Below, piece by piece: positions 31,806 to 51,086 of a DNA stretch of 51,783 bases; positions within the stretch are counted from its first letter, which is position 1; each line of letters starts with the position of its first letter. Origin of the DNA: Cyanobacteriota bacterium. GTDB lineage: Bacteria; Cyanobacteriota; Cyanobacteriia; Cyanobacteriales; Coleofasciculaceae. The translations under genes and the position numbers were made by a program. The stretch covers positions 1-51,783 of the forward strand of contig JBFLZA010000001.1 of the NCBI GenBank assembly GCA_040756535.1, given 5' to 3'. The notes below the pieces were generated by a model. The model did not search any database. It was not told the origin of the DNA and saw only the letters and a program-made list of their open reading frames with translations.

Positions 31806-31832
31806 GGGTCGGTATTAACGGTAGAGAGTTTG

Positions 31833-32201: not shown

Positions 32202-32235
32202 TATAGAACCCTCAACCCCAGGACGAATTGACCGC

Positions 32236-33598: not shown

Positions 33599-33604
33599 GG
33601 GAAG

Positions 33605-34240: not shown

Positions 34241-34282
34241 GCTTGTGTATGTATCTCTACAATACTCTGCCTAAAAGGAGGC

Positions 34283-34375
34283 GAAGTAGGCAAAGTAGGC
34301 AAAGTAATGATTTGTATTACTTATCAAAAACGGGCAGGAAAGGGATTGACTTTTGCGTCATTCTTCTACTTTGCC
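34283..34375. promoter_or_regulatory. candidate recombinase binding sites (GGCAAAGTA motif)
   Basis: GAAGTAGGCAAAGTAGGCAAAGTA (34283-34306) holds two direct copies. An inverted copy, TACTTTGCC, is at 34367-34375. The region lies between the intact recombinase gene and its truncated paralogue. Confidence 0.35.
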
Positions 34376-34410
34376 CCTGGTGACACGAACCCTAGTTTTA
34401 CCCCAAACTG

Positions 34411-34632
34411 AAGAATTCAGAGCGGCGTTCCAGAGAATACTTGTTACCAACCGAGGTGAGGCAACTGATAGAAGCCGCCAAGAAGCTTGGGCGTCACGGC
34501 CATCGCGATGCTGTTTTAATTACGATGGCTTATCGTCATGCCTTACGAGTGGGAGAGTTAGTCAATTTACGCTGGTATCAAGTGAATTTTTCTGAAGGAA
34601 AGCTTCATATCAATCGTCTCAAACATGGTTAA
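34411..34632 (+). pseudogene. N-terminal fragment of a paralogous small tyrosine recombinase
   Basis: SERRSREYLLPTEVRQLIEAAKKLGRHGHRDAVLITMAYRHALRVGELVNLRWYQVNFSEGKLHINRLKHG* aligns with residues of the 33605..34240 product up to ...VHRVKHG. It has no proper start and no catalytic half. Confidence 0.7.
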
Positions 34633-34665
34633 GTAGCAGAATTCATTAGACTTCTTGCATAAATG

Positions 34666-34709
34666 CTACAGCACTAGGAGATAAGTACTACAGCATTAGG
34701 AGATAAGTA
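34666..34709. repeat. 22 bp tandem direct repeat (2 copies, 1 mismatch)
   Basis: CTACAGCACTAGGAGATAAGTA / CTACAGCATTAGGAGATAAGTA, immediately after the break point of the truncated recombinase gene. Confidence 0.85.
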
Positions 34710-34911
34710 CTACTAAGCTGTTCAGCATTTAGATTGAGATACCTAAATTCCTCAAAGGGAACAGGGAACAGGCGACGGAGAATACCCAATTTAAATGTAC
34801 ATCAGCTCAGTACGTCATAACAATCGACTTTTGCAATAGGTCTATTTAACTAGCTTTTCTTCGTGATTACGGTAATAGAGATGGCGTAGGTGAAGCAATC
34901 TAGGAGGATTT

Positions 34912-37900
34912 ATGGAAATAGCGGTAAACTTCGAGTTTTGTGATGGAGACTTTGAGCGCGGATTTACTCAAATCAAACTTCAGGTAACTAATGCACAGCG
35001 TAACTCTATACAATTAGAAGCGCAATTACCCCCAATTCCAGAACTTCCAGTTTCCTATCAAATTTGGAAAGATAAATTCGATTCTTTACTGAAGAATAGC
35101 AGAGGCGGTTTTAAAAAAAATCAAGTAACAAATCTTTCCACAGCCGAGTGTTATCAACTCGAGGAAAATTTATGCAATCACCTTCATCAGTGGTTGAACC
35201 CCATCAAGTTACAATTAGAATCCTTATTCCAATTAAGTCCTCCTTCAGAAATTCGTCTAATTATCCACACGCAGAATATAGCAGCAGAAGATACCAAAGA
35301 CATCTTACATCGACTGCCTTGGCAAGAATGGGATTTATTTCCAGAAAATTGCCACTCAGAAGCAGCACTTTGTTTTAATTCTTCTCAACCCAATACCGCT
35401 GCATCCGAACAACCATCAACAACTGGAAAAATTAGAAGAGCTAGAATTATCAGTATCTTTGGAGATAGTGACAATATTGATATTACAGCTGATGAAGAAT
35501 TAATTAATAAATTAAAGAAACGAGGAGCCGAACTGATTCCTCTGCGAGAGCCAAAACGCTCAGAGTTTATAAAACTCTGGGAAGAACCTTGCGATATCCT
35601 GTTTTTCGCCGGTCACAGTGAAACTACCGATAAGGGTCAAACTGGTGGACTTTACATTAATTCTGATGACTATTTAAATCTAGAGGAAATTAGAAAGACT
35701 CTCAGGGCAGCCATTAGCAAGGGTTTAAAATTAGCCATATTCAATTCCTGTGACGGTCTAGGTTTAGCAAGGCAATTAGCGGATTTAAACTTACCCTACA
35801 TTATCGTGTGGCGCTCGGAAGTACCAGATCAGCTCGCCCAAAAGTTTCTCAAATATTTTCTCAGTTCCTACACGCTAGGTCAATCTTTATTTGTAGCTGT
35901 TGCAGAAGCAAGGGCACAACTGAAAGAACTCGCAGACGACCGGGATATTGAAAAGCAACTACCAGGAGTGAGCTGGTTACCAGTTATCTGTCAAAATACA
36001 ACGGAGCCTCCACCAAGTTGGGAAGATTTGGGAGGATTGTCTGGCGAACTTCCTGAGTGTCCTTATCACGGTTTATCTGCGTTTCAGGAAAAAGATGCGG
36101 ACTTCTTTTTTGGTAGGGAGAAGTTTATTGCTTCTTTAGTGGAAGCAGTAAACAGCAAACCGCTAGTTCCTGTAGTTGGTGCTTCTGGGAGTGGAAAATC
36201 TTCTGTGGTATTTGCAGGGTTGATTCCCCGTTTACGAGCTTCTGGGAATGTGGAGATAGTCAGTTTTCGTCCGGGGAAAAATCCGTTTGATGCTTTGGCA
36301 GTGGCGCTAAGCAAATATTGCAAGTCTCTGGTACAAGGACAAACAGAAGCATCAGGAGAAAGGGCTAGCAGGTTGGCGGAACTGGAATTTGAGGTCAACC
36401 TGCGACATGATGAGACAGTATTATGCCATCTTATCGAAAATATTGTTAGTTCTTCAGAATACCACCGTTTGGTGTTAGTAGCAGACCAGTTTGAAGAACT
36501 TTACACCCTCACTCCAGAAGATGAACGTTACAGTTTTTTGAAGGCACTGCTTTTGACAGTAAGAAACACTCCGGCGTTGACGCTGGTGCTGACGTTGCGA
36601 GCAGATTTTTTGGGAATTGTGCTTGATGAGCAACCAATGGGAAAGGCTTTGCAGCAATACTCCCCATTGTTACTGACTCCGATGGACTCTGAGGAATTAC
36701 GAGATGCGATTGAAAAACCAGCTTTAAAAATGAAGGTGGAGCTGGAGGAGGGGTTAACAGGTAAACTTATTAATGATGTGGGGAATCACCTTGGTCGTTT
36801 ACCAATGCTTGAGTTTGCGCTCTCCAAGCTTTGGTCGAAACAGAGAAATTGGTATCTGACGCATCAGGCTTATGAAGAAATTGGCGGTTTAGAAAAAGCC
36901 TTGACCAAACATGCTTCGGAAGTATTAAAGCTGCTATCTAAGGCGGAAAAACAACAAGCCGAACGAGTGTTTATTCAGTTAGTGTGTCCAGGGGAAGGTA
37001 CGGAAGACACCAGGCGTGTTGCTACTTGCAACGAGGTGGGGAAAGAAAATTGGAATTTAGTCAAACGTTTAGCTGATGCGCGTTTACTGGTGACTGGGTG
37101 GGATGAAACTGAGAAAATAGAAACAGTGGAAATCGTCCATGAAGCATTAATTCGAGAATGGGGAACCTTGCGGGAGTGGATAACAACTAACCGTGAGTTT
37201 CGCATTTGGCAAGAAAGGTTCAAGCAAGATGTGCGTGACTGGGAAAATAGTCATCAAAACCCAGAAGCCTTATTGCAAGGAACGCGCCTAGCTGTAGCAG
37301 AAGATTGGTACAAGCAACGAGGAGATGAACTAACACCACGAGCGCGAGATTTTATTACCGCTAGCATTACACGGCGGGAACAGGAGCAACAAAAACAGAG
37401 GCTGAGACGACAGCTAACTATTTTTGGGCTTACTGGTGGTTCCCTGGTAGCCTTGATGCTAGCTGGAGCAGCTTGGTGGCAATGGCAGAATGCACACTTT
37501 AACGAAATAAAAGCTATTAATGTATCAAGTGAAGCGCTTTTAACCTCGGCTCAAGATTTTGAAGCGCTGATAGAAAGTTTGAAGGCATCCAGAAAACTAA
37601 AAGAAACACCAACTTATCTAGTATTTCGTAGACTTCAGGAAAAGGTTGATATCCAAAAGCAGGTTGATATTTTATTACAGGAGGCACTCTATAAAGTTAC
37701 AGAACGCAATCGACTGGAAAAGCATAAAGATGAGGTTACAAACGTTAGTTTCAGTCCTGACGGTAAGATGATTGCCACGGCAAGCAAAGACAAAACCGTC
37801 AAACTCTGGAGTTTGGATGGGAAAGAAATCAAAACCCTCCAAGGGCATCAAGCTTTGGTACAGAGGGTCAGGTTTAGCCCTACAGGAAACAGAATTGCAA

Positions 37901-39576
37901 CAGCTAGTTGGGACGGAACTGTCAAACTTTGGACGAGAGAAGGTAAATTAATCACTACCCTCAAGGAAAATAAAAAAAAGCTTGATAGTGTATATGGTCT
38001 GAGTTTTAGCCCTGATGAAAAAACAATTGCTACTGCTGACGCTGGAGGAAATGTCAAACTCTGGACGAGAGAAGGTAAATTAATCAAAACCTTTAAGGGA
38101 CATGACCAGCCTATCTTGAACCTTAGTTTCAGTCCTGATGGTAATACTCTTGCCACCGCCAGTCAGGATAAAACAGTCAAACTCTGGAACCGGGACGGAA
38201 AACTACTGCGAACCTTGACTGGACATAAAGATTGGGTTTGGAGTGTGAGTTTCAGCCCCAACGGTCAGAAGATTGCTACTGCTAGTAGGGATGAAACTGT
38301 GAAACTTTGGAGCATTGAGGGAAAGGCAATCAGAACCCTAAATGCTCATAAAAATTCGGTAACTAGCGTTAGTTTTAATCCTGATGGAAAGCAGATTGCC
38401 ACCGCTGGTGCTGACAACACCGTCAAAATCTGGAGTGAATCTGGTGAAGAACTTCAGACCTTGAGCGGACATAAAGATTGGGTTTGGAGCGTCAGTTTCA
38501 GCCCTGACAGCAAGATGCTTGTCACTGCTAGCAAGGATGGAACTGCCAAACTCTGGCAATTAAAAGGGAAGAATTATCAAATTCATCAGGCGCATAACAG
38601 CGGAATTTATAGCATAAGTTTTAGTCCTGATGGGAAGGAGTATGCTACTGCTAGTAAGGACAGAACTGTCAAACTTTGGAAGCGTTCAGGTAAATTAATT
38701 AAAACTATCGAAGGGAACGACAGTGAACTCCTGAAAAACCCAGAGACCTGGTTTACTCACGTCAGTTTTAGCCCTAATGGACAAATAATTGCTACCGCTA
38801 CTAGTGATGGAAATGTGATTCTTTGGAGTCGCCAAGGAGAGAAAATTAAAAATTTCAAGGGACACGAACGAAAATGGATCTGGCAGGTAAGTTTCAGTCC
38901 TAATGGCAAGACTTTTGCCACTGCTGGTCATGACGGCACTGTTAAACTCTGGAGCTTAGATGGCAAGCTACTCAAAGCCATTGAGGCACATACAAAAGAT
39001 AAAGATGGGGAAGGGGTTAATAGCGTCAGTTTTAGTCCCGATGGCAAAATTGTCGCCACCGCTGGCTGGGACAAAAAAGTCAAACTTTGGACGAGTGAAG
39101 GTAAACCAATCAAAATCCTTAAAGGACATGAAGATGGAGTTCATAGTGTCAGTTTCAGCCCCGACGGCAAGGTGATTGCTACTGCCAGTGAGGATAAAAC
39201 TGTCAAGCTTTGGACGAGTGAAGGTAAATTCATTAGAACCATTAAAGGGCATGATGCTGGAGTCTTTCGTGTCAGATTTAGTCCAGATGGAAAAGTAATT
39301 GCTACTGCCAGTTTAGATAAGACTGTTAAACTCTGGAGTCTTGACGGTAAGGAACTGAAAACCTACAAGGGACACGATGATTCTGTTTGGAGCCTTAATT
39401 TCAGCCCCGATGGTCATACCCTTGCCTCAGCTGACAATGCCGGAAAATTAATTATGTGGGATTTGGGCTTGGAGTCAAATCAGCTACTGGTTGATGGTTG
39501 CAATTGGGTAGGTGATTATCTGAAAAACAATCCAAAAGTGAGTGAGAGCGAGCGCACTTTCTGTAACGGTAGATGA
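34912..39576 (+). CDS. CHAT protease domain, STAND-type P-loop NTPase, transmembrane helix, WD40 array
   Basis: CHAT His/Cys dyad context: ILFFAGHSE and AIFNSCDGLG. P-loop VVGASGSGKSSVVFAGLIP (about 36178-36204). TM LTIFGLTGGSLVALMLAGAAWWQW (37414-37485). About 14 WD40 units of the form V.SVSFSPDG..IATAS.DKTVKLW. Confidence 0.9.
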   Translation: MEIAVNFEFCDGDFERGFTQIKLQVTNAQRNSIQLEAQLPPIPELPVSYQIWKDKFDSLLKNSRGGFKKNQVTNLSTAECYQLEENLCNHLHQWLNPIKLQLESLFQLSPPSEIRLIIHTQNIAAEDTKDILHRLPWQEWDLFPENCHSEAALCFNSSQPNTAASEQPSTTGKIRRARIISIFGDSDNIDITADEELINKLKKRGAELIPLREPKRSEFIKLWEEPCDILFFAGHSETTDKGQTGGLYINSDDYLNLEEIRKTLRAAISKGLKLAIFNSCDGLGLARQLADLNLPYIIVWRSEVPDQLAQKFLKYFLSSYTLGQSLFVAVAEARAQLKELADDRDIEKQLPGVSWLPVICQNTTEPPPSWEDLGGLSGELPECPYHGLSAFQEKDADFFFGREKFIASLVEAVNSKPLVPVVGASGSGKSSVVFAGLIPRLRASGNVEIVSFRPGKNPFDALAVALSKYCKSLVQGQTEASGERASRLAELEFEVNLRHDETVLCHLIENIVSSSEYHRLVLVADQFEELYTLTPEDERYSFLKALLLTVRNTPALTLVLTLRADFLGIVLDEQPMGKALQQYSPLLLTPMDSEELRDAIEKPALKMKVELEEGLTGKLINDVGNHLGRLPMLEFALSKLWSKQRNWYLTHQAYEEIGGLEKALTKHASEVLKLLSKAEKQQAERVFIQLVCPGEGTEDTRRVATCNEVGKENWNLVKRLADARLLVTGWDETEKIETVEIVHEALIREWGTLREWITTNREFRIWQERFKQDVRDWENSHQNPEALLQGTRLAVAEDWYKQRGDELTPRARDFITASITRREQEQQKQRLRRQLTIFGLTGGSLVALMLAGAAWWQWQNAHFNEIKAINVSSEALLTSAQDFEALIESLKASRKLKETPTYLVFRRLQEKVDIQKQVDILLQEALYKVTERNRLEKHKDEVTNVSFSPDGKMIATASKDKTVKLWSLDGKEIKTLQGHQALVQRVRFSPTGNRIATASWDGTVKLWTREGKLITTLKENKKKLDSVYGLSFSPDEKTIATADAGGNVKLWTREGKLIKTFKGHDQPILNLSFSPDGNTLATASQDKTVKLWNRDGKLLRTLTGHKDWVWSVSFSPNGQKIATASRDETVKLWSIEGKAIRTLNAHKNSVTSVSFNPDGKQIATAGADNTVKIWSESGEELQTLSGHKDWVWSVSFSPDSKMLVTASKDGTAKLWQLKGKNYQIHQAHNSGIYSISFSPDGKEYATASKDRTVKLWKRSGKLIKTIEGNDSELLKNPETWFTHVSFSPNGQIIATATSDGNVILWSRQGEKIKNFKGHERKWIWQVSFSPNGKTFATAGHDGTVKLWSLDGKLLKAIEAHTKDKDGEGVNSVSFSPDGKIVATAGWDKKVKLWTSEGKPIKILKGHEDGVHSVSFSPDGKVIATASEDKTVKLWTSEGKFIRTIKGHDAGVFRVRFSPDGKVIATASLDKTVKLWSLDGKELKTYKGHDDSVWSLNFSPDGHTLASADNAGKLIMWDLGLESNQLLVDGCNWVGDYLKNNPKVSESERTFCNGR

Positions 39577-39599
39577 AAGCCCTTTTGTTTGTTCTCGAC

Positions 39600-40517
39600 C
39601 TAGTTGAATGGAGTTTGGTATCCGGCAAATTCGCTTAAGTAAGCGAGAATAGAAGTGCCACTTTCATCCTGAGAAACCTCATTATTAAGCAGCAGCCTGG
39701 ACACCCCTTTTTCGCCACGTAGATGGGCAGCTGCAAGAATTCCGGATTTGGTGACCAATACTCCTCCTCGTTCTTGTCCGATAAATTCTTCTATGGAGCG
39801 TCCATTCAGTTGATTTTTGAGCAGAACCCACTTGTATTGCATAGCCTCTTGAATAGCTATTTCTTGCACATTGTTCTTATTATTCAGAAAATCTTCCTTG
39901 CTATTAACTCCATGTTTTCCTGTCCATGTACCGCGCCAATAATTCTTGTCAACACCCGGTTGTCCGTAGTAAGAATTGGCTTGGTAGTACCCAAGGTCAA
40001 TAAGTAGAGCTTCCCCAAATTGGTACTTGCCGATAAAGCCCCATAGATTATTAGTATTGTTGTAAGTTGGATTTCCGGGTCCTGTTTCCCTCTTTGCAAG
40101 TGCGTTCAAAAAGTCGTTGTAACTTCCCTTGCTAGAACCCGGCGTGGGCTTAGGCTGATTAGCTCCAGGTATAACAAGCACCATCCCAGCTTGGAGTTGA
40201 GTATGGTCAGGTCCAATCACATCGTGATTAGCCTCATAGATTTTTCTCCACGACGCTTCACTGCCATCTCCGTAAAATTTCTCAGCAATCAGTGATAAAA
40301 AGTCACCAGGTTGTACGGTATATCGAGTCAGATTTGTCTGTTTTGCTTGTGCGATATAACCGCTTTTGTTGAAGACACTGTAAGCGTAGCTAGATTCAAA
40401 TGGTAAAAATGATGTGGTTAAAGCTGAACACACCACCAGTCCTATAGCATAAAGTTTGTCTATTTTTCGTGGCAATGATTTTGTTTTTGGCAACAGAGTC
40501 ATGGAACTTTTTACCAA
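39600..40517 (-). CDS. secreted LysM domain protein with lysozyme/transglycosylase-like C-terminal region (tentative)
   Basis: N-terminal hydrophobic segment LYAIGLVVCSALTTSFLPF. LysM: YTVQPGDFLSLIAEKFYGDGSEASWRKIYEANHDVIGPDHTQLQAGMVLVIPG. The C-terminal GKYQFGEALL...ILAAAHLRG resembles muramidase-like folds. Only the LysM domain is confidently recognised. Confidence 0.75.
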   Translation of the reverse strand: MVKSSMTLLPKTKSLPRKIDKLYAIGLVVCSALTTSFLPFESSYAYSVFNKSGYIAQAKQTNLTRYTVQPGDFLSLIAEKFYGDGSEASWRKIYEANHDVIGPDHTQLQAGMVLVIPGANQPKPTPGSSKGSYNDFLNALAKRETGPGNPTYNNTNNLWGFIGKYQFGEALLIDLGYYQANSYYGQPGVDKNYWRGTWTGKHGVNSKEDFLNNKNNVQEIAIQEAMQYKWVLLKNQLNGRSIEEFIGQERGGVLVTKSGILAAAHLRGEKGVSRLLLNNEVSQDESGTSILAYLSEFAGYQTPFN

Positions 40518-40595
40518 ATAAGGTTTGAGGTTTACAAGAATGTTTCTTTTGATTGTGTAATTTTCTGTTGAACGGAAGCAAGGAGAAGCTTAAGA

Positions 40596-40803
40596 TAATT
40601 GCTTGTTTGCCCTGTTTCTACTTTTAAATAGATTCAAGTCCAATCGACCTATACACTTGTGTGAGCAAAATGGAAGTTTACTCCTAACAAATACATTATG
40701 AAACCCTTATATATCAAGGTTCACAAGAAATTGCGTTTCTTTCATGTTTCACTTGCAGCGTGCCGCTAGATAGTGGCTCACATCTTGCATAGCGACACTC
40801 CCA
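40596..40803. repeat. copy 1 of a roughly 210 bp dispersed direct repeat
   Basis: TAATTGCTTGTTTGCCCTGTTTCTACTTTTAAATAGATTCAAGTCCAATCGACC...GTGCCGCTAGATAGTGGCTCACATCTTGCATAGCGACACTCC aligns along its whole length with 51087-51297. Differences are scattered substitutions and small indels. Confidence 0.85.
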
Positions 40804-40968
40804 TCACAGTGGGAACGCCGCCATAGAATAAGACGGCTTGGTAAATGAGGAGCCGTTTCCTCCATGCCTAGTGTCTGGACTGCCTTGCATCAGGTGTATA
40901 CCATCGAAATGAAAACCGCTATAGGTTTTTCATTGTCCCTATAGCTTGTTTGTTATGTTTCCCTACTG

Positions 40969-43900
40969 TTACTGAGATTGGCGTCGAGAAAGCTCTTCTG
41001 CTTTTCGTTGGTTTGCCTGGGCTGCTTGTTGATCTCCCAGACGGGTATAAGCTAGTGCTCGGTTAGTGTATGCCAAGGCATTACTAGGAGCGAGTTCGAT
41101 CGCCTTGTTGTAATCTGTGATCGCCTGTTGAGAGTTGCCCTGATGGTAGTAAGCTATTCCGCGATTGATATAAGCATTAGCATAAGTCGGATTAAGACTA
41201 ATTGCCTTACTACTATCAGCGATCGCTTTGGGGTAATCTTTCTGCTCGTTATAGGCGGCTGCCCGATTGCTGTAAGCTTTATCACTATTGGGATTGAGAG
41301 CGAGCGCTTGACTATAGTTGCTGATTGCTTGTTGGTAATTTCTTTGTCTGTGGTAGGTTAAGCCCTGATTGATGTAGACATCAACTGAGTTGAGCTTGCT
41401 CGCCTGCTTGCGATCGCTAGGGGCTTGCCTATAGTTATTCTGTCCGTTGTTAGACGAAGAGTTTGGAGACGGAACATTCTGAGGACGGACTGAGGCATTA
41501 GCAGGAGCAGATGAGCTTGGTGTATCCTGTCCATTGTTAGACGAAGGAGTTGGAGACGGAACATTCTGAGCCTGATTGTTAGGATTAGTGACGGTTGGCA
41601 CAGGGGTTTCGTCAGCGATAGTAGTTGTTTGCTTCTGTTTATTAAAGTCGTCACAAAGACGCTTATCGCTCTCATCGAGATTGGGATTCTTCTGTAGATA
41701 GTCCTGCACTAGATAGCAAATTTGCTGCCTCAGCTCCTCCACCTCACCAACTTGCCATACCCTAACCTGACCATCCGTTCCAAAGGTTGCTAGTTGCTTG
41801 CGGTTAGGGCTGAATTTTACTCTCTTAATAGCCTCTTGTTGCATTTCAAATTGTTTAAGTTCGTTGCCTGAGGTGTCCCACAGCTTGATTAAATTCTCCT
41901 CTTTCTCTGATGAACCAATGGTTACTAGTTTATTGCCGTCCGGGCTGAACACTATACTATAGATATTCTGTTGTCGCGTTGGGAATTGGTTGAGCAGGTT
42001 GCCCTGAATATCCCATAGCTTGATCTTGCCGCCCTCTCCACCAGTTGCTAATTGTTTGCCGTCTGGACTGAACGCCACATAAGCTCTTTCTTGCTGTATT
42101 GGGAATTCACCCAGGTTTTTACCATCAGTGTCCCACAACTGGGCGTTATCGTTTTCCCTTGAGGTAGTTGCCATTCGAGCGCCATCACTGCTGAACGCCA
42201 CGCTATAGATTTTCTGCTGGTTTTGGAATTTGTCGAAGTCGGTGTTCAAAATAGAACGAGGCACGAATTCGTCATCTTTGAAATCCCACAGCTTGATCGT
42301 CCCTTCGTCCTTTCCACGGGTTGCCAGTAGATTTCCTTCAAGACTAAACGCTATAAGATCAATATTTTTTTGCTCTGTTTTTATCTCCATTAGAGCGGGC
42401 TTTTTACCTGATAAGTCCCACAGCCTAACGATGTCGTCATCTTCAACAGTTGCCAGTTGATTATTTTTGGGACTGAATTCGACGAGCTTGGTTCTTCTTT
42501 TATAAAGTTCGGGGTTCGAGGTGTTCTTCCGCCTGATATTACCGTCATCTTCAATGTTCCACAGCTTAACTGTGCTATCCTTTCCGATGATTGCTAGTAC
42601 CTTGCCGTCACGACTAAACGCCACACTCTTGACATCCCTTTCGTGTGCTGGTGATGGGGCAGGTTTATTGCTCGATATGTCTAATAGCCTGACAGTGCCA
42701 TCGTCTCCGCCGATCGCCAGTAGCTTAGCGTTATGGGGATGGAACGCTAAGCTATTGATGTTTTCTTGCTGTGTCTGGAACTGTGTCTGGAATTGGTTGA
42801 TCGGATCGCCCAACTTCTTCAACAGCGTAACTGTGCCGCTCTTTCCACCGATTGCTAGTACCTCGCCGTCAGGACTAAACGCCAAATCTATTGCTATACT
42901 GTTGGGCTGCATTGGAATTTTCTTGAGCAGCTTACCCGATTGATCCGATAGATTCACCATACTGCCGCCCTTGACAAGCGTTGCCAACTTACCATCCTTG
43001 GGACTATATGCCAAGCTCTCAATAAACCCTAGGCTCGTTGGATATTGTCTGATGGATAGGGAATTGTTTTCCCTCTTGAACCTCATCGTATTTTTGTCAA
43101 TGTCAACTATCCTAGCAACGCCAACTGCATCAACGGTTATTAGCTGGCTACCGTCAGGCATGAACATTATGCTCTCGATACTCTTTTTCAGGGGGTGGGT
43201 GTAGTCGAGCTGCTTACCTGAGGAGGTATCCCAAAGACTAACCTCACCGTTTTTTGTAGCGATTGCTAAGACTTGGCTATCTTTAGGGCTGAATACCACG
43301 CTATTGACATCTTTTCGATCCGTTGAGAATAGATTTCCTTTACTCGTTGGTAGGTTGATTGACTCGCCCGACTTGGCGTTCCACAGCCTGACTGTGCCGT
43401 TCCCTGCAATAGTCGCTAGTTTCTCACCGTTAGGACTAAAGGCCACGCTCTTAACTGTTATGTCTTCGATACTCCCTTCAAGCGGTTCGATTTTGGCAAT
43501 TTCTTGGGAATTAGAAGTCTCCCACAGCCTGACTGTGTAGTCCATTCCAAGGGTTGCCAATTGCTTACTCTCAGAGCTGAACGCCATGCTAAATATATAC
43601 TCTGACTGCTTTGGCTGCTGCTGGGACTCTAAAGGGAGGGGTTGTCCTGGATTCCCATCAAACTTGCTATTTTTAATGTTCCATAGCTTGACCGTGTTAT
43701 CCTGTCCACCAATTGCCAGCTTGGTGTTATCTTTGAAGGCCACGCTATAGACATTTTTTTGATCGGTGGGTTTTAGACTGCACTTTTTGCCGTCGATGTC
43801 CCACAGTATGACTCTGTCGCTCTCTCCAACGATTGCCAGTAACTTGTTGTCAGGACTGAACGCCACATCATAGATATTCTCGCCCTTGTTGAGCTGGTCG

Positions 43901-46900
43901 CAGCTCTGAGTATTCAAAGTTGTTTTACTTGGCTTGAACTGCCAGTTGTCCTGGAAGGAGCCAAAAGGGTTCCCAAAAAATAGCAACCAGTTAAAAGGTT
44001 GGCTGATGTCGTTCTTGTTCTGAGCGACCCTGTCCCATAGCTTGATTGTGCGCTTCCCTTTGTTGTCCTCGTTAATCGTTACCAGAAACTTGCTGTCAGA
44101 AGTAAATTCCACATCACGGATTATCTGTTGCTGACTTTGCTTTGAGGTAAGGATCTCTTTACCAGAAGCGGTATCTACCGTGTTGTTCTCGTTAATTTTC
44201 CACAGCTTGACCGTACCGTCTTCTGCACCAGTTGCCAGTTGCTTGCCATCATTAGTGAACGCCAAGCTATAGACCAGCTTTTTTGTCTCTGCCGAAAAAA
44301 GCTGGATTTGTTTCGGTTGTTGGGGTTTGCTAGTATCCCAGAGCCTAACACTGCCTCTACCTCCAACGGTTGCTAGTAAATTCCTTTTAGGATTGAACGC
44401 TATCTGATAGACACTCCCTCGATCTAGCTGTAGTCGGTTGCGTTCTTTCACTGTATAAAGAACCTTGGACAGCGTTTCTCTCACTTGTGCCAGCTCTTCG
44501 TTTGGTTTGAGCAGCCCCCAAAAAGATGAACCCTTAAGGTTTTTTGTGGCTCGCAAAATATCGATAGCTGCTTCTAAATCACGATTGGATTTCAAATTGG
44601 CTTCTGCGGATTGTTGGAAAGTACGGATTTGCTCTATTTGTTTTTGCCGCCCATTGATTAAAGCCCAGAAAGTTAGCCCACTCAAGCCCAGCATAACTGC
44701 GATCGCAATCACCCACCGCAAATTAGTATTTCTACGTCTTCGCCAAACGCTTTTCTGGACAAACTCAGTTTCTACCTGGTTAAACCAGTTGTCTTTCTCA
44801 GATGTGAGTACCTGTTTTAAGACATCGAGATAGGGGTCAGCATTCCAAAGAAACCGTGCCTCTTGCTTACTTTTCCACTCAATGGCCGCTGGTGTCAGCC
44901 GCCGTTGCAGAGGTAAATCTTCCTGCTCCTCCTGCTGCCATTTCTGTAGCTTATCCCACCCACGTACTAAGGCATCGTGAGCGGGTTCAACGCATTCAAC
45001 TTCGTCGGTATTGGCTGGCTGTAGCGGGTCGGGAATCGTATATTTTACTAGAAGTCGCTCAAAAACGAAGCTGTTAATGACATTATCGGCTCGATTATTT
45101 TCGTCCGGAGCGGCATACGTCCATTCTAATTTCACCAATTTGCGGCGAGAAATCTCACCTCCTTCTAGAGAAATCATCCGAAGCATGACATTGCGGATTG
45201 TTCGCGCATACGCATCTTTTTCTTTTGGATTGTTCTCTAACAAACTCTGGTATACTTCATTTGCCTTTTTGGTAACTGACTGAGTTACGCCACCCAACTC
45301 GTTATAGTCCGCCCAAGTGATGGTGCGATCAGGAATCTCGCCCTTGTTCAGCGCGTTTATGAATCGCGTTGCTAACTTGCGATAAAGTTCACTCAACGCA
45401 AACGATAGCAAGGGTAATGCTCCTGGCATATCTGCAACTTCATGAATTAGTTGTTGAACTAGAGTACGGTTGTTTGGTTTATCCGAGCCAAATTGAATAG
45501 CTTTGACCGCCGCAGGAGCCTCGATCACTTCTTGCAGCTCCTCCCGCGTCATGGGTGGTACGATAAATCGTGCTGCATTCCAAATACGTTCCTCAAATTG
45601 CTGTTTCGATTCAACACCTTTTGATTGATTAGGCTGTTGAGCGTTCAGTAGCGATGCTAAATTTTTATGCTTTTTGAGTTCAGCTTCAACGCTTTCTCGC
45701 AGTTGGGGTTCAAAATCTAACCGCAACGTGAGAACAAGGTGTAATCTGCCTGAATACTTTTCCAGTTGCTCTGATAGTCGTCGCAGAAACTGCTCTCGCT
45801 CAGGCTGATCGCGGCATTGCGTCACTAACTCTTCAAATTGGTCAATTACCAGCAGGAATTTTGTCCCAGTAGGGATGGTATCCAGATTTGTCCCTTCGAG
45901 TGCATTTTCCAAAGTCTTTGCAGGTGACTCACCAGGACGTATCGGCTTTAGAATCTCCCACTTTTCGTGTTTGTGACGATGAGTTTGACCGTCTTGGAGC
46001 GATACCAATACCTGCGACTGCTGTGCTTCTTCTGGCGATCGCTTGAGATGGGGAATCAAACCTGCTTTGACTAGACTTGACTTACCAGAACCGGACGCAC
46101 CTAAGACAACAGTTAGGGGATGTTCGCACACGCGATCACAAAGTTCTTCAATTAACTTAGTTCTCCCAAAGAACAGTTGGCTATGCTCTTCCTCGTAGGA
46201 TTCTAAGCCTCGGTAGGGATTGCTTTCTTTGGTATCCTCCAGAGTAGGAGCAGGAGGCAGTTTCGTTTTGTCGAAGTGTTTTGTGAGAAAAACGTACACA
46301 CCCTTGTCGTGTTTTTCGTCTACTATCCATAACCCAGGAGTTTGACGTTTGTTGCGTTGAGCTGTTTCTAGCTCGATCTGGTATCGCACATACTGATACA
46401 GTTCATCGGCAGTAATGATTCCATCGCCTGCTGGCTTGTCATCTTTAGCTGGCGGATATGTATCGGCGGCTTCATCTCTTAACGCCTTCATCAAAGCAAT
46501 AGCAAAGGGGGAGTGCTCTGCATTTCCAAAATCACGGTTATTCTCCAGTACCATCTCATCAGCAGCCGTCTGATCGTGTGCTGAAGAAGTGATAACTTGC
46601 CAGGCCGGATCGTTAATGAACAAGTCAAAATTATCCCTGAAAATCTCCCTGACATGACCAAACTGTCGTGTATTAGACCACCGGAAAGCACCTGAATAAC
46701 AGCAGTCCAGAATAATCAAACAGTGACGGCAGGGTAGTTCCGCCAGTACTTTCCTCAACTGGCTCATGGATAGATATGTATTTCTATTCATAACCCCAGG
46801 TTTGGCATCCTGCGGAATCAGGAAACCCTGAGGACCGTCCTCGCTGTTGAGAGCAATGCCGTGTCCTGCAAAATAGAACAGGAGGCGATCGTCTGAACCA

Positions 46901-47169
46901 ACGGTTTCTTTGAGAGTCTTCAACAGAGCGTTGAGGTTTTCTAAGGTTGCATTCTCATCTAGCCACGCCTTGTTCTCAATCTGACTGGCTGGCTTTGATG
47001 GCGAAATTAGCGTATATTCGTGTTCACTCTCCAAAATTTCAGCGATTTTCTGGGCATCGTTAACTGCGGTTCGCAGTGGAGGAACTCCTGAGTGGTAATC
47101 ATTAATACCGATGACCACAGCATAGCTGTTCGCAAAGCCTGATTCTGATTGAGAAGTTGGTGAAGTCAT
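40969..47169 (-). CDS. caspase (peptidase C14) domain, STAND-type P-loop NTPase, transmembrane helix, WD40 array, low-complexity linker, TPR repeats
   Basis: Caspase dyad context: YAVVIGINDY, LLFYFAGHG, IILDCCYSG. P-loop VVLGASGSGKSSLVKAGLIP (46081-46101). TM LRWVIAIAVMLGLSGLTFWALI (about 44658-44721). Many divergent WD40 units. C-terminal TPRs (AISNYSQALALNPNSDKAYSNRAAAY...). Confidence 0.9.
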   Translation of the reverse strand: MTSPTSQSESGFANSYAVVIGINDYHSGVPPLRTAVNDAQKIAEILESEHEYTLISPSKPASQIENKAWLDENATLENLNALLKTLKETVGSDDRLLFYFAGHGIALNSEDGPQGFLIPQDAKPGVMNRNTYLSMSQLRKVLAELPCRHCLIILDCCYSGAFRWSNTRQFGHVREIFRDNFDLFINDPAWQVITSSAHDQTAADEMVLENNRDFGNAEHSPFAIALMKALRDEAADTYPPAKDDKPAGDGIITADELYQYVRYQIELETAQRNKRQTPGLWIVDEKHDKGVYVFLTKHFDKTKLPPAPTLEDTKESNPYRGLESYEEEHSQLFFGRTKLIEELCDRVCEHPLTVVLGASGSGKSSLVKAGLIPHLKRSPEEAQQSQVLVSLQDGQTHRHKHEKWEILKPIRPGESPAKTLENALEGTNLDTIPTGTKFLLVIDQFEELVTQCRDQPEREQFLRRLSEQLEKYSGRLHLVLTLRLDFEPQLRESVEAELKKHKNLASLLNAQQPNQSKGVESKQQFEERIWNAARFIVPPMTREELQEVIEAPAAVKAIQFGSDKPNNRTLVQQLIHEVADMPGALPLLSFALSELYRKLATRFINALNKGEIPDRTITWADYNELGGVTQSVTKKANEVYQSLLENNPKEKDAYARTIRNVMLRMISLEGGEISRRKLVKLEWTYAAPDENNRADNVINSFVFERLLVKYTIPDPLQPANTDEVECVEPAHDALVRGWDKLQKWQQEEQEDLPLQRRLTPAAIEWKSKQEARFLWNADPYLDVLKQVLTSEKDNWFNQVETEFVQKSVWRRRRNTNLRWVIAIAVMLGLSGLTFWALINGRQKQIEQIRTFQQSAEANLKSNRDLEAAIDILRATKNLKGSSFWGLLKPNEELAQVRETLSKVLYTVKERNRLQLDRGSVYQIAFNPKRNLLATVGGRGSVRLWDTSKPQQPKQIQLFSAETKKLVYSLAFTNDGKQLATGAEDGTVKLWKINENNTVDTASGKEILTSKQSQQQIIRDVEFTSDSKFLVTINEDNKGKRTIKLWDRVAQNKNDISQPFNWLLFFGNPFGSFQDNWQFKPSKTTLNTQSCDQLNKGENIYDVAFSPDNKLLAIVGESDRVILWDIDGKKCSLKPTDQKNVYSVAFKDNTKLAIGGQDNTVKLWNIKNSKFDGNPGQPLPLESQQQPKQSEYIFSMAFSSESKQLATLGMDYTVRLWETSNSQEIAKIEPLEGSIEDITVKSVAFSPNGEKLATIAGNGTVRLWNAKSGESINLPTSKGNLFSTDRKDVNSVVFSPKDSQVLAIATKNGEVSLWDTSSGKQLDYTHPLKKSIESIMFMPDGSQLITVDAVGVARIVDIDKNTMRFKRENNSLSIRQYPTSLGFIESLAYSPKDGKLATLVKGGSMVNLSDQSGKLLKKIPMQPNSIAIDLAFSPDGEVLAIGGKSGTVTLLKKLGDPINQFQTQFQTQQENINSLAFHPHNAKLLAIGGDDGTVRLLDISSNKPAPSPAHERDVKSVAFSRDGKVLAIIGKDSTVKLWNIEDDGNIRRKNTSNPELYKRRTKLVEFSPKNNQLATVEDDDIVRLWDLSGKKPALMEIKTEQKNIDLIAFSLEGNLLATRGKDEGTIKLWDFKDDEFVPRSILNTDFDKFQNQQKIYSVAFSSDGARMATTSRENDNAQLWDTDGKNLGEFPIQQERAYVAFSPDGKQLATGGEGGKIKLWDIQGNLLNQFPTRQQNIYSIVFSPDGNKLVTIGSSEKEENLIKLWDTSGNELKQFEMQQEAIKRVKFSPNRKQLATFGTDGQVRVWQVGEVEELRQQICYLVQDYLQKNPNLDESDKRLCDDFNKQKQTTTIADETPVPTVTNPNNQAQNVPSPTPSSNNGQDTPSSSAPANASVRPQNVPSPNSSSNNGQNNYRQAPSDRKQASKLNSVDVYINQGLTYHRQRNYQQAISNYSQALALNPNSDKAYSNRAAAYNEQKDYPKAIADSSKAISLNPTYANAYINRGIAYYHQGNSQQAITDYNKAIELAPSNALAYTNRALAYTRLGDQQAAQANQRKAEELSRRQSQ

Positions 47170-47295
47170 AATTTCTGAGGTCGATCGCGCACTGGGTTGA
47201 CTTGTTGAAGCAACGGGAGGGTTTCCTGGCGGCTGAGGCGATTGAGATGAAGTGGTTCTCTTGCCTGTATTCCCCTCTGGAGCAATCGGGTTGGG

Positions 47296-50200
47296 CTAAG
47301 GAGGGGGAGGCGTTTTTGGAGGAGTTGTCGGACCTGAATAACCGGGAAAAGCCCGCGCCACAGCCCTTGCTAAGGCATCTAAACCAGCGGGATGTCGGAA
47401 GTATGATAAGTGATCGCAAGCCACTTGATTCTGAATGTAAGCCGCAGGCGATCGCTCCTCTGGTACACTCACAATGCTCTTCACAGTTACTGCAATATCA
47501 TTAGCTTCCTTCATGAAAGGAAACTCAATGGCTCGACGCCAGGTTCGTTGAAGAGCCGCCTGAAGTCGATTAATTGCTTCTTCTTGTTGAGGAATCAGCG
47601 AAGTGTTTCCAGCAATAATACTGTACGGACACTGCGGATCGGCACAGTCCTTCAACTCCTGGAGAAATTTCGATTTGGTAGGATGCATCTCATCCAGGTT
47701 GACATCCTTCTCCTCAATCCATGCCACCAGATCGGCTAGTACTTTCGCAGGGAATACCACAGAAGACAAACCATTTAATCCAGCCGCAAGCGCGAAAGTC
47801 GCCAAGTCTTGCACGACAGCCCAGGGTGAGCCAGCATTGGGAGTCCCCAACATAATTAGATGTTGTACGACTTGATTGCCCTCCCACTGCTCAATAAAGC
47901 TGCGAGAAACCAATCCGCCCATCGAGTGAGCCACGATATGCAGCGTCTTACCATGATTGGGTTTCAATCCGACAGCAGCCAGTTTATCCTTGAGTTGCTT
48001 GCCAAGTTCTTTAATCGGCGTGTTCAGGCTTTCATAATCAAATGTCAGCACTAAGTCATAAATATCAGCGAGGACTTGGGATTGTCCATTCGCCACCACT
48101 TTGGCTTGTTGCACACTCGGCACCATACTTTCCGTATCGCCGATAATGCCGTGAATGTAGAGGGCAATGCATTGGGCTTTCGCTACCTCTGCTTTGATCT
48201 GCTGCTCGTCTTCCTCATAGCTGACAGTTCTATCCTCAGCAACACGAGCAATTCTGAGCTTAGGATAGGGAGACTCATGTCCCAGGTTTTCGTATATTAC
48301 CTTTTGGAAGTAGATTCGGATTGCACCACCGAGGCTGCGTTTCTTCTCGCCTGATGTTTGCTCACTATCTAGTGTCGGTATCCGTTCTATCCGAATCTCG
48401 GTTTTACCGTCCTTTCCTTTCCCCTGTCCCAAAGGCAGCCAGAACTCCCCATCGTAGGCAACTGGAAGAATGTATTCATCCTGAGCAATAGACTTGTTAA
48501 CCGACAGAACCAATGGGTTTTCCGGAGTCACAGTCTCGATAGTCTCACGGTCATTCACCTGCAACTCCAGCACGCTTAACCCTGAATCAACTCCTCGGCT
48601 AGCGGTGAACTGGAAGGGCTGCGTGTAGTCACCCAACATTGGCGGCAAAGTGGGACTGCCTATATCTCGGGTTGATGGTGGAACAGAGGATAGGCGAACA
48701 CTTGCACGTAAACCGATGTGGGGCTGAATTGTCACACCAAAGGAGAGGTCAGTAGGAGCTTGGTGATTGAGTGGGACCGCATCTTTAGGTCGAACCGTTG
48801 TGATGCTAACTTGCCTGGTTACCCAATCATCGATCTCCTCAACAACACCAAATTGTCGGGTCTGAATTTGATACATCAACAGATTAAGTGTATTAAGGCG
48901 ACTGGGACACTCTCGGCTCTCACCACTCGACTCAACACTCCGAGATGACAAATCATCCTGACAAAGAAGGGTGGCATCAAACTCTGCCGTACTGACGAGC
49001 AGCTTGAAGACATCCTGATATTCGGTAACTCCCTTTTTCCAAATCTTGTCTGGCACACTGGCGGGGATATCATCCCTTATTTTTCGGTTGCCGTTCCAAA
49101 TAGCGGCATCAACTTCTTCTCCTGGCTCAATCCACAAACCACCCTTGTAGGACAGTTCGCCCTGAGGGAATAAAGGTGGAACATTCACAGAATAGTCTTC
49201 CGCTACATCCAGAATGGCGCAGAAAAGCCGTTGTTCGTAAGTGTTGGTCAGCTTAACCCGGAATGTCGGTTGATGCCATTCATCGTTCCTGTACTCATAT
49301 TCCAGCCGCAGATGGGGTTCTTTGACCTCCTCGCCCTCGCCATTGCGATAGATCTGAACCTTGACCGCATTGGCAGGAATTTGGCTCTCTGGATTTGCCA
49401 AATCAATCGTTGTTGTCCAACGGGCGATGTGTTCCAGATTCTTCACAGCCCTGAAGGCTTTGTCGTATCCTTTCAGCGGTTCTACCAACGGGCGATCGTC
49501 TGATGGTTTAGTAATTACATACTGCCTATCCTTTGCCAAAAGACGATACTGAGCTTGATTCAGTGTGTTTTCTTCCCGAATATAAAGCGAGGGTTTCTCA
49601 CCGAGACCTACTCTCTGAAGTTGTTGCCGCACCTGTTCTAATGCGTCTGAATCTCCTTCGAGATAAACTCCAATGGTCGGAGGCGGCAGACTGAGAGCGA
49701 TCGCTCTCAGTCTGGTATCTTCTGTCAGGTTTGGAGGCTCTTGGGTGAACTCGACAATACTCCTATCGGGTAGCACCTCAATAACCTCCGCTTCACCAAC
49801 TGCCTCAGACACTTGTCGCATTTGCTCTGGAGTACTGCCTTGAGAATAAAGCGCAAGTTTAATAGGAATATTGCTAATTTTGGGAAAACCATGTATGGCT
49901 CCCCCATCAATCTCCCAATTTGTGCCATTGTGTCTCAAGGTAAAGAAAGGTTCGCGAGGTTTAATAATGTCTGAGCCACCTAGAAATGATAAATTATCTA
50001 AATCTTCGGAATTATTAGCTTCTAATCGCGGAGTTTGATCTTTGATACGGCTGCGGACACGGGAACTAACTTCCTTGAAAAATTCGCGGTAGGAGAGAGT
50101 ACTATTAGTTTTGTTAAGCGAATCCAACAAAAAGTAAGAAAAAGCACCTCTCGTTTTACCATCACCGGAATACTCACTTGCCTTTTCCCGATCCTCGCAA

Positions 50201-50811
50201 GCTGCCAACAGTACATGCCGTCCCTCTGGCAAGTCCCAGCTATCTCCGTGCTTTTGAGAGCGGAGTGCTACATCATTAGCAAAAATGAATTCTTCAATCT
50301 TTCTGGGTCGTGTATCTGCGGGAGTATGGCGAACTTTCTGCTTCTGCTCCACATCTCTGGTGCCAGAACCAGAATGGCAGCTATCCAGTACTATGACAAT
50401 GTGTGGATTGCGTTCAGCGACTTTAGCAATCAGATAGCGCAATTCCTTATTGGCTAAGTCCCTGGTGCTGGTGCGGCTATCCCAACATACGAGCGTTTCC
50501 AGCTTACCGTCTCGCTCTAAATATGAAAACTCTGGAGAGGCAGGTTCCTGCGAACCGTGCCCACAGAAGTAGAACAGCACAACATCATCTTTACCCGCCT
50601 GAGTTAGGTGTTTTTCAAAACTATCGATAACTGCTTGCCGGGTAGCTTCTGCATTCCGTAGTGTCTTTATGTTGCCGTGTTGGCTACTATCAACCCGTGT
50701 TTTCAAATAGTCTTCTATCGCATTAATATCGTTAACGCAGCCATCCAGTTTGCGAACTGGTGCAGGATAATCATCGATGCCAACAAGAAGTGCGTAGAGG
50801 TTGCGAGTCAT
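47296..50811 (-). CDS. caspase (peptidase C14) domain fused to a large unknown middle region and a C-terminal alpha/beta-hydrolase (lipase/esterase-like) domain
   Basis: YALLVGIDDYPAP, VLFYFCGHGS and IVLDSCHSGSG form the caspase dyad context. The nucleophile elbow HIVAHSMGGLVSR (47911-47940) is a GxSxG motif. Start trimmed to the ATG at 50811 (MTRNLYALL). Same strand as the 40969..47169 gene and 126 bp upstream of it. Confidence 0.85.
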   Translation of the reverse strand: MTRNLYALLVGIDDYPAPVRKLDGCVNDINAIEDYLKTRVDSSQHGNIKTLRNAEATRQAVIDSFEKHLTQAGKDDVVLFYFCGHGSQEPASPEFSYLERDGKLETLVCWDSRTSTRDLANKELRYLIAKVAERNPHIVIVLDSCHSGSGTRDVEQKQKVRHTPADTRPRKIEEFIFANDVALRSQKHGDSWDLPEGRHVLLAACEDREKASEYSGDGKTRGAFSYFLLDSLNKTNSTLSYREFFKEVSSRVRSRIKDQTPRLEANNSEDLDNLSFLGGSDIIKPREPFFTLRHNGTNWEIDGGAIHGFPKISNIPIKLALYSQGSTPEQMRQVSEAVGEAEVIEVLPDRSIVEFTQEPPNLTEDTRLRAIALSLPPPTIGVYLEGDSDALEQVRQQLQRVGLGEKPSLYIREENTLNQAQYRLLAKDRQYVITKPSDDRPLVEPLKGYDKAFRAVKNLEHIARWTTTIDLANPESQIPANAVKVQIYRNGEGEEVKEPHLRLEYEYRNDEWHQPTFRVKLTNTYEQRLFCAILDVAEDYSVNVPPLFPQGELSYKGGLWIEPGEEVDAAIWNGNRKIRDDIPASVPDKIWKKGVTEYQDVFKLLVSTAEFDATLLCQDDLSSRSVESSGESRECPSRLNTLNLLMYQIQTRQFGVVEEIDDWVTRQVSITTVRPKDAVPLNHQAPTDLSFGVTIQPHIGLRASVRLSSVPPSTRDIGSPTLPPMLGDYTQPFQFTASRGVDSGLSVLELQVNDRETIETVTPENPLVLSVNKSIAQDEYILPVAYDGEFWLPLGQGKGKDGKTEIRIERIPTLDSEQTSGEKKRSLGGAIRIYFQKVIYENLGHESPYPKLRIARVAEDRTVSYEEDEQQIKAEVAKAQCIALYIHGIIGDTESMVPSVQQAKVVANGQSQVLADIYDLVLTFDYESLNTPIKELGKQLKDKLAAVGLKPNHGKTLHIVAHSMGGLVSRSFIEQWEGNQVVQHLIMLGTPNAGSPWAVVQDLATFALAAGLNGLSSVVFPAKVLADLVAWIEEKDVNLDEMHPTKSKFLQELKDCADPQCPYSIIAGNTSLIPQQEEAINRLQAALQRTWRRAIEFPFMKEANDIAVTVKSIVSVPEERSPAAYIQNQVACDHLSYFRHPAGLDALARAVARAFPGYSGPTTPPKTPPPP

Positions 50812-51086
50812 CTTAATTTTTCCTAGTGATACATCCACGTATAGCGTTTTCAAACAAGACAAGAAAAATTGTTGTATTTTTCTTGGTTAGGAAAATTGAA
50901 TAATTGCAAGTTTCTTCATTACCTGGAGGCAGTTGGCTTCCTGTTGATAAACTAGACGCACTCGCCGGACAATTACCTGCATCACCGTTACTGCATACTG
51001 TAGGGATGCATAATCGCTGCCAAAGACTAAACGGTTGCCCTCCCAAAAAAGCATGGGCGTTTGTGAGGGAAATTTACTGTGGACTT

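Follow-up and report, generated by a model that had tools for sequence, protein, structure and literature searches.

Within a 51,783-nucleotide (nt) stretch of DNA from a Cyanobacteriota bacterium (assembly GCA_040756535.1, contig JBFLZA010000001.1; hereafter the window), two neighbouring genes on the minus strand each encode a caspase-like protease. The upstream gene (47296..50811, minus) codes for a caspase/beta-sandwich/alpha-beta-hydrolase ('A-B') protein of 1171 amino acids (aa), matched by Pfam C14 and DUF7379 and referred to here as the effector. Product of the downstream gene (40969..47169, minus; 2066 aa) is a STAND protein, in which Pfam recognises a C14 caspase, an nSTAND1 NTPase, WD40 and TPR repeats. 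Why should a caspase with a hydrolase, devoid of any sensor of its own, be encoded next to a caspase that is equipped with both switch and sensor? The analysis presented here shows that functional coupling of the effector to the STAND protein is well supported, and it leads to a possible mode of action in which one protease would license the other.

Open reading frame (ORF) translation places the start of the effector gene at the ATG at 50811 and its stop at the TAG at 47296-47298. We consider 50811 to be the likely start because homologues start at MTRN; a longer ORF beginning with TTG at 50862 is unsupported for the same reason. The intergenic gap between the effector and STAND genes is exactly 126 nt (47170-47295). 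These coordinates agree with the initial annotation of this DNA, which had placed the gene 126 bp upstream of a caspase-STAND-WD40-TPR gene on the same strand.

Adjacency, fusion and fission of the two genes

Straight-through translation reveals that both ORFs lie in one frame, with a single TAG stop between them. The TAG (47296-47298) and 42 in-frame sense codons, together 47170..47298 (minus), precede the ATG of the STAND gene (47167-47169). This 42-codon spacer encodes a Pro/Ser/Thr-rich, linker-like stretch that continues the C-terminal tail of the effector, and it aligns with the coding linker of relatives in which both genes are fused. In a 94% identical relative (L084), TAG and downstream ATG are both kept. 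In a relative of about 82% identity (protein P0241 of locus L081), an in-frame 6-nt deletion covers TAGCCC and ACC replaces the ATG; the remaining indels of the L081 linker are all multiples of three, and L081 has a single ORF of C14-DUF7379-C14-nSTAND1 architecture. The whole set of domains, including WD40 and TPR, is present in the single-ORF protein P0277 (3416 aa). Further single-ORF fusions include P0252, P0242, P0249, P0253 and P0058, the last of them found in two independent assemblies.

Fusion also involves other proteases. The caspase-hydrolase unit is joined to an N-terminal S8 subtilase in P0340 and to a C-terminal CHAT domain in P0266 and P0330. In P0268 (2271 aa), STAND caspase and nSTAND1 NTPase are followed immediately by the middle region and hydrolase of the effector, with no second caspase in between; the protein has about 650 further residues. 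That the two proteins act jointly, and that protease activity of the partner is relevant, is indicated most strongly by this repeated fusion and fission, along with coupling to a second protease from several families.

The initial annotation had proposed that the two genes probably form an operon, and nothing suggests that they are transcribed separately: a scan of the 126-nt gap detected neither promoter-like nor terminator-like sites (weak evidence, as overall scan counts are at or near background), the frame is shared, and the genes are fused in the relative of about 82% identity. The gap itself holds no ORF. Conserved adjacency, shared frame and single-polypeptide fusions thus uphold both the partnership and the probable operon. 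It is more speculative that low-level read-through of the conserved TAG could yield split and fused isoforms.

We wondered how often homologues of the effector occur together with a similar partner. In a forward survey, restricted to one genome per species, 43 loci contained a hydrolase-bearing gene with enough downstream sequence. In 19 of the 43, the next gene downstream, in the same orientation, codes for a C14- or CHAT-protease fused to a STAND NTPase (18 with nSTAND1, one with NACHT), with gaps of 7-360 nt. Another caspase-fold protease lies directly downstream in 4/43 (TPR-CHAT, C14-GDSL lipase-CHAT, CHAT-like, or C14 followed by C14-STAND), and C14-STAND follows after one small ORF in 2/43. 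In total, a caspase-fold protease gene was scored as directly downstream in 25/43 loci (58%). A STAND gene is adjacent upstream in three loci, and 15/43 have no adjacent partner, three of them with a STAND gene elsewhere within 10 kb. Linkage to STAND caspases, which the initial annotation had suggested as a test, is very frequent but not invariable. Like the conserved triad (see below) and the lack of any sign of separate transcription, it speaks in favour of the initial annotation.

When 833 flanking ORFs were clustered all against all, no neighbour family other than these protease/STAND genes recurred. Besides Cyanobacteria, the cassette is present in such distant lineages as Sericytochromatia, Chloroflexia, Methylomonas, Ideonella and Trueperaceae. 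Moreover, pairwise identities of effectors and of their adjacent STAND proteins co-vary (r = 0.71, Mantel p ~5e-4, 15 pairs), to which shared phylogeny contributes.

For the reverse survey, metagenomic relatives of the STAND N-terminus were used if 1 kb or more of sequence was available upstream, which was the case for 62. Hydrolase protein of the effector family is encoded directly upstream in about 13 of them, other C14 proteins in five, TPR-CHAT in one and another caspase-STAND in one. No further recurrent upstream family was found among the 62 relatives.

Two of the surveyed loci display peculiar arrangements. In Spirosoma sp. KNUC1025, the gene directly downstream of the family member (L039:13386-17729) codes for a 1448-aa protein composed of C14 caspase, GDSL lipase and CHAT protease. 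It represents an independent second combination of caspase with lipase, the lipase fold being unrelated. In Methylomonas fluvii (L048:12419-13475), about 1.1-1.2 kb of additional DNA interrupt the family member behind residue 805. This insertion carries a 344-aa ORF on the opposite strand and is probably an insertion sequence; the downstream C14-nSTAND1-WD40 partner is intact.

Domains of the two proteins and their genomic setting

Residues 1-285 of the effector (49957..50811, minus) correspond to a metacaspase/orthocaspase-like Peptidase C14 domain according to Pfam, PDB profile and Foldseek comparisons. The N-terminal caspase reported initially is thus verified: Peptidase_C14 (PF00656) matches residues 6-268 with 83.1 bits (E = 3e-23), the cut-off being 21.4. 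PDB profile matches are metacaspases (at 1e-19) and GSU0716. An AlphaFold2 model of the effector was built on 41 homologues, with mean predicted local distance difference test (pLDDT) of 77.5. By Foldseek, the caspase part of this model matches the bacterial caspase-like protein GSU0716 (3bij, E = 9e-13, TMt 0.71), plant metacaspases 4 and 9 and MALT1 caspase-Ig3. 

Conservation of individual residues was counted in an alignment of 44 long family members from many phyla. The catalytic dyad of the caspase, His85 (50557-50559, minus) and Cys145 (50377-50379, minus), is identical in 44/44, and the same is true for Asp143; the dyad is embedded in GHG and D-x-C-H-S-G motifs. Both the effector and STAND caspases carry the D-x-C-(H/Y)-S-G motif, which is typical of Arg/Lys-specific metacaspases. 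Judged by its DxCHSG motif, the effector caspase would prefer Arg or Lys at P1. Residues 4-548 are also matched by the PADLOC defence-candidate 'caspase' model PDLC02987 (1.4e-38). No hydrophobic helix was found in the effector by hydropathy scan.

The C-terminal part, residues 831-1160 (47332..48321, minus), is a lipase-like alpha/beta-hydrolase of the DUF7379 type, as indicated by Pfam, Foldseek and a conserved triad. DUF7379 (PF24096) matches residues 884-1006 (E = 1.2e-13, 51.8 bits, cut-off 33) and is overlapped by weaker Pfam matches to Palm_thioest, PGAP1 and LCAT, all just above their cut-offs. Together with the DUF7379 match, HIVAHSMGG at residues 958-966 confirms the C-terminal GxSxG hydrolase that had been recognised from this motif. 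Its AHSMG elbow aligns with chains of the Bacillus lipase A family in PDB profile comparison. Foldseek retrieved Bacillus lipase BlEst2 (6wpy_A, E = 1.2e-7, TMt 0.64), and the order of strands and helices in the model fits the alpha/beta-hydrolase fold. The oxyanion His-Gly (residues 887-888) is conserved, His887-Gly being present in 44/44 sequences. The nucleophile Ser963 (47923-47925, minus) is found in 39/44, while Asp1105 (47497-47499, minus) and His1134 (47410-47412, minus) are each found in 40/40 sequences that are non-gapped at the respective column. Alignment thus recovers a Ser-Asp-His triad, which the initial annotation had left to be checked. Owing to this invariance and to typical motif contexts (the acid is part of NDIAV and the histidine of CDHL), Ser963, Asp1105 and His1134 are predicted to constitute a conserved catalytic triad. 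Some of the sequences deviating at Ser963 are Bacteroidota proteins whose C-terminus is not a DUF7379 hydrolase.

Caspase and hydrolase are connected by the middle region, residues 286-830 (48322..49956, minus), which is conserved and consists mostly of beta-sandwich domains in the AlphaFold2 model. It had been described as about 500 residues with no recognisable motif. It is indeed motif-poor, but it is longer than that (about 545-590 residues), conserved, and predicted to form a string of beta-sandwiches. A separate AlphaFold2 model of residues 285-875 reached pLDDT of 80.4 and predicted TM-score (pTM) of 0.73. Its comparison with PDB and with the viral models of BFVD yielded only weak Ig-like/beta-sandwich matches (best E = 6e-4, TM <= 0.15 over query), from which neither a catalytic nor a ligand-binding fold was apparent in the middle region. 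We read it as a probable scaffold.

Further, we examined conserved basic residues in flexible loops, selecting positions with Arg or another basic residue in 85% or more of the sequences and with pLDDT below 50 in the AlphaFold model of the loop. They form two groups. One is situated in residues 148-198 (50218..50370, minus), a flexible linker that follows the catalytic Cys and contains low-pLDDT loops 148-156 and 183-191. Here, position 152 is basic in 44/44 sequences and positions 161 and 170 are basic in 43/44 each, so that Arg152, Arg161 and Arg170 mark a candidate activation-cleavage region. The region following the catalytic Cys is the site of metacaspase autoprocessing. The other group, selected by conservation and pLDDT, occupies disordered loops preceding the hydrolase (48337..48669, minus), between the beta-sandwich region and the first hydrolase strand. 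It comprises Arg715 (48667-48669, minus; R/K in 44/44), Arg739-Gly740 (48595-48597, minus; R739 in 39/44, mostly with Gly next to it) and Arg825 (48337-48339, minus; R/K in 39/44), with pLDDT below 50 at residues 713-720, 738-742 and 816-828. These are candidate release sites. The motifs are kept in fused proteins as well as in relatives of other architecture. Because both caspases bear the D-x-C-(H/Y)-S-G motif, we infer that the loop arginines are candidate cleavage sites. Within residues 831-1160, conserved basic residues are limited to R/K832, K837, K955 and R970, none of which has a conserved Gly next to it.

The STAND protein is composed of the C14 caspase (residues ~1-300), nSTAND1 (318 to ~800), a hydrophobic helix (819-839), WD40 propellers (~900-1850) and TPR (~1920-2066). 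Pfam nSTAND1 is matched with E = 5.6e-88, in addition to WD40 and TPR matches, and Walker A (GASGSGKS) and DQFEE motifs are apparent in the sequence. The strongly hydrophobic segment of 21 residues (WVIAIAVMLGLSGLTFWALI; residues 819-839; 44653-44715, minus) is inserted between NTPase and WD40 and is preceded by four arginines (RRRR). According to hydropathy scan, 18/25 STAND proteins of the surveyed loci contain a comparable segment. Such a segment may serve as a membrane anchor, with the sensor repeats outside the cytoplasm. If residues 819-839 do span the membrane, these repeats would be exposed on its outer side, and activation of the effector would take place at the membrane.

To estimate size of the effector family, a word-indexed search was performed with the effector as query, and 1779 proteins were retrieved at E <= 1e-5. 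The best 120 of them are nearly all full length, 46-94% identical and of C14 + DUF7379 architecture. Family members bear source names 'caspase family protein' or 'pimeloyl-ACP methyl ester carboxylesterase'. When one representative per 50%-identity cluster was searched exhaustively by phmmer with the middle region alone, 1184 clusters were detected at E <= 1e-3. Of these, 316 reached E <= 1e-30, and we take this number as the minimum size of the family. Beyond cyanobacteria, the architecture occurs in Planctomycetota, Acidobacteriota, Deinococcota, Chloroflexota, Bacteroidota, Actinomycetota and Proteobacteria (one genome per species). Shorter proteins, consisting of the caspase and only the first half of the middle region, were also found. 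Search with the hydrolase only, intended to detect stand-alone hydrolases or other architectures, returned almost exclusively fragments of the effector family, and a genuine free 'middle + hydrolase' form was not established in it. Two candidates were rejected: a short hydrolase-only hit on a long contig (L080) is a frameshift-split copy, and the 'hydrolase-only' gene of L057 is devoid of the Asp and His region and probably frameshifted.

As to the genomic setting, nearest named homologues of the effector are all cyanobacterial, and the HIP1 octamer GCGATCGC occurs 44 times compared with 0.4 expected. One HIP1 site forms the centre of a perfect inverted repeat with a 12-bp stem (CAGACTGAGAGCGATCGCTCTCAGTCTG, 49687-49714), which falls within the sequence coding for the middle domain and was detected by the terminator scan on the antisense strand. 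A second STAND gene (34912-39576, +), coding for a CHAT-nSTAND1-WD40 protein of 1554 aa, is convergent to the effector/STAND pair and adjoins a phage-type integrase gene (33605-34240, minus). About 10 kb around it (31496-41218) have lower G+C (0.41-0.44) and no HIP1 sites, whose frequency elsewhere in the window is about one per kb; this stretch is probably recently acquired DNA. Mobile-element genes also abound in the remainder of the window, with a serine recombinase (3582-5120), two more integrase-family genes (16792-18237, 30208-31233) and a C5 cytosine methylase fused to ParB N-terminal domain (18434-21487). Three large ORFs of 636, 1176 and 1036 aa (6099-8009, 9371-12901 and 13566-16676) have no Pfam match at all. 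Considering the second CHAT-nSTAND1-WD40 gene, the integrase, the recombinases and the methylase-ParB fusion, the region is suggested to be mobile and rich in conflict systems.

Proposed cascade and its alternatives

What could be the purpose of such a pair? The initial annotation had conceived the STAND caspase as initiator and its sensor-less neighbour as executioner, an order that appears plausible by analogy with published protease cascades. We propose that the two genes would form one cassette, and that it would encode a module of two tiers for cell death or defence, gated by proteolysis. In it, the STAND protein would act as sensor and switch, its WD40/TPR region detecting a signal. Oligomerisation of the nSTAND1 NTPase would then bring the N-terminal caspase domains together and activate them as initiator. 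The effector would be made as a latent multi-domain precursor and play the part of executioner. The STAND caspase, a predicted Arg/Lys cutter, would cleave it at Arg152/161/170 and Arg715/739/825, by which the second caspase would be turned on and the lipase-like Ser-Asp-His hydrolase freed. The activities thus released would degrade cellular proteins and probably membrane lipids, and the cell would be stopped or killed. To this chain of events, from sensing and oligomerisation via cleavage at arginine loops to arrest or death, we assign an even chance of being correct.

Several observations weigh against it. Adjacent protease or STAND partner is missing in 15/43 loci, and the effector must therefore also work alone or with an unlinked partner. 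Conversely, the STAND family pairs with the effector in a sizeable minority of cases and is not dependent on it, as follows from only about 13 of 62 relatives having the effector upstream. A few aligned sequences are without the Ser nucleophile, and the hydrolase-bearing protein of L045 has Gly in its place. Loop arginines, being located in poorly modelled loops, might just as well serve as motifs for interaction. The hydrolase fold of the effector has no counterpart of the two internal R|G sites at which the hydrolase zymogen LcHydrolase is cleaved (see below). Finally, the steps of the mechanism are derived from sequence, models and analogy with published systems.

Alternatively, the effector might be self-contained: dimerisation and autoprocessing in cis or in trans would free its own hydrolase, and the STAND protein would only recruit or concentrate it, for example by caspase-caspase heterodimerisation. 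This would agree with the invariant His-Cys dyad of the effector, with about one third of family members having no adjacent protease or STAND gene, and with stand-alone genes for caspase plus middle region, lacking the hydrolase, in Actinomycetota and Bacteroidota; besides, autoproteolytic effector deployment was proposed by Kaur et al. for caspase-fused components (PMC7159879). We nevertheless regard self-activation as unlikely. The effector is repeatedly coupled, by adjacency or fusion, to a second protease of C14, CHAT or S8 family, and it is thus hard to explain how protease activity of the partner could be irrelevant; P0268 even fuses STAND caspase and NTPase to middle region and hydrolase with no second caspase left. 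Since linkage and fusion data imply partnership and no direction, the order might also be reversed, so that the sensor-less caspase acts on the STAND protein (e.g. by trimming an autoinhibitory region), or both proteases might act in parallel on separate targets. These arrangements seem very doubtful in view of the sensor-fused protease being upstream in every characterised prokaryotic protease-effector module (PMC12642450, 10.1101/2023.06.23.546230) and of conserved arginine loops being placed exactly between domains of the effector.

Outcome of the reaction might as well be other than death. A role in regulation or development, such as remodelling of envelope or membrane lipids or protein maturation in multicellular bacteria, would be in line with the conserved hydrophobic helix of STAND proteins, with PGAP1, LCAT and palmitoyl thioesterase, lipid- or lipoprotein-remodelling enzymes, as Pfam neighbours of the hydrolase, and with cyanobacterial caspase homologues having no proven death role (PMC8283722). 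We find this quite improbable, given the integrase/recombinase-rich window with its second CHAT-nSTAND1-WD40 gene, the match of the PADLOC defence-candidate model, and the patchy distribution of the cassette across phyla, as expected of mobile conflict systems. It might finally be argued that the pair in the window is a once-single gene, broken by nonsense mutation and now decaying, as there is a single in-frame TAG and the spacer aligns with coding linker of the fused relative. This is hardly credible, because TAG and downstream ATG are conserved in the 94% identical relative and both ORFs are otherwise intact over ~3240 codons; separate genes, with gaps of 7-360 nt, are moreover the commonest state of the family.

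Comparison with known systems

Accessory domains following an N-terminal C14 domain with His-Cys dyad and DxCHSG motif are known from cyanobacterial orthocaspases (PMC8283722, PMC3501461), to which the effector is similar in this respect. Hydrolase architecture is, however, absent from the accessory-domain tables of these surveys, where the nearest case mentioned is one metacaspase that carries amidase and GDSL lipase domains (PMC8283722, PMC3501461). Likewise, literature searches for DUF7379 and for caspase-hydrolase fusion in orthocaspase surveys yielded no description. The opinion of the initial annotation that this is not a characterised family accordingly holds for the fusion, but not for its components in a wider sense, since pairing of caspase with alpha/beta-hydrolase and bacterial caspase cascades have already been published (PMC7159879, PMC12642450, 10.1101/2023.06.23.546230).

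Kaur et al. (2020) predicted computationally that caspase domains of certain conflict systems are always accompanied by a neighbouring alpha/beta-hydrolase (PMC7159879). In the preprint of Evans et al. (2025), sensor-fused caspases cut latent effectors encoded beside them; one of these effectors is an alpha/beta-hydrolase zymogen, which becomes toxic once its caspase-like neighbour has cut it at two R|G sites (PMC12642450). The LcCaspase/LcHydrolase pair resembles our system in that the hydrolase is encoded beside a sensor-fused caspase-like protease (the sensor being beta-propeller repeats or a STAND NTPase) and is, or would be, a latent death effector gated by proteolysis. In contrast to LcHydrolase, a free zymogen of ~300 aa, the hydrolase described here forms the C-terminus of a 1171-aa protein with its own active-looking caspase and ~545 beta-sandwich residues. 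As far as can be judged from the published description, the systems also differ in the position of putative cleavage sites: both R|G sites of LcHydrolase are inside the fold, whereas conserved arginines of the effector precede it in linkers.

Evans et al. further noted that effector genes are found immediately 5' of protease-STAND genes (PMC12642450). The same gene order, effector directly upstream of protease-STAND, is characteristic of EACC1-caspase and Pepco-protease systems with Avs/STAND (PMC7159879, PMC12642450). Their 5' genes encode small pore-forming products (EACC1 with a single transmembrane segment), whereas a bifunctional enzyme of 1171 aa occupies this position here. The NCBIfam model of EACC1-associated caspase (NF047832) gave 52.6 and 78.2 bits, below its cut-off of 140.

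A cascade of two caspase-fold proteases is represented by the type III-B CRISPR/CBASS hybrid of Steens et al., in which sensor-coupled SAVED-CHAT cleaves and activates the sensor-less PCaspase (10.1101/2023.06.23.546230). As compared by description, both clusters contain two such proteases, an oligomerising sensor-coupled one and a broad C14 executioner without sensor that is activated by it, which is the step predicted for our pair. Catalytic positions of PCaspase (H79/C146) are also similar to those of the effector (H85/C145). The sensors are different: SAVED binds cyclic nucleotides and responds to cyclic oligoadenylate, while nSTAND1-WD40-TPR takes its place here, with no SAVED domain found in the STAND partner by Pfam. 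The additional fused hydrolase is another difference.

What is new in the system presented here is a putative executioner combining caspase with lipase, whose gene is linked to, and in some cases fused with, that of an Apaf-1-like sensor caspase. If the proposed mechanism is true, a large and widespread family, so far named 'caspase family protein' or carboxylesterase, would be the executioner arm of a STAND-triggered protease cascade, and a caspase-plus-lipase effector would be added to the bacterial death effectors licensed by proteolysis. Bacteria would then also offer a system, open to experiment, in which initiator and executioner follow the logic known from animal apoptosis. Natural split and fused versions, as well as conserved arginine loops, offer ready-made constructs and mutants.

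Cyanobacterial Apaf-1-like STAND-WD40 proteins with N-terminal caspase were described in a 2026 survey (PMC13581612). Animal apoptosis, where Apaf-1/caspase-9 leads to caspase-3, likewise couples a STAND NTPase with WD40 to a caspase, and a second caspase would be the executioner in our case. The animal apoptosome recruits its caspase by CARD, whereas here the initiator caspase is fused to STAND, a lipase-like domain is attached to the executioner and a membrane helix is predicted in the partner. The resemblance, drawn by analogy, would thus be one of logic. Somewhat short of an even chance, we tentatively picture a two-tier bacterial caspase cascade built on an Apaf-1-like STAND-WD40 platform, in which a membrane-anchored sensor caspase would license an executioner with protease and lipase activities. 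It would then represent the closest prokaryotic counterpart of the axis from apoptosome to executioner caspase, occurring naturally both as two genes and as a single polypeptide of ~3400 aa.

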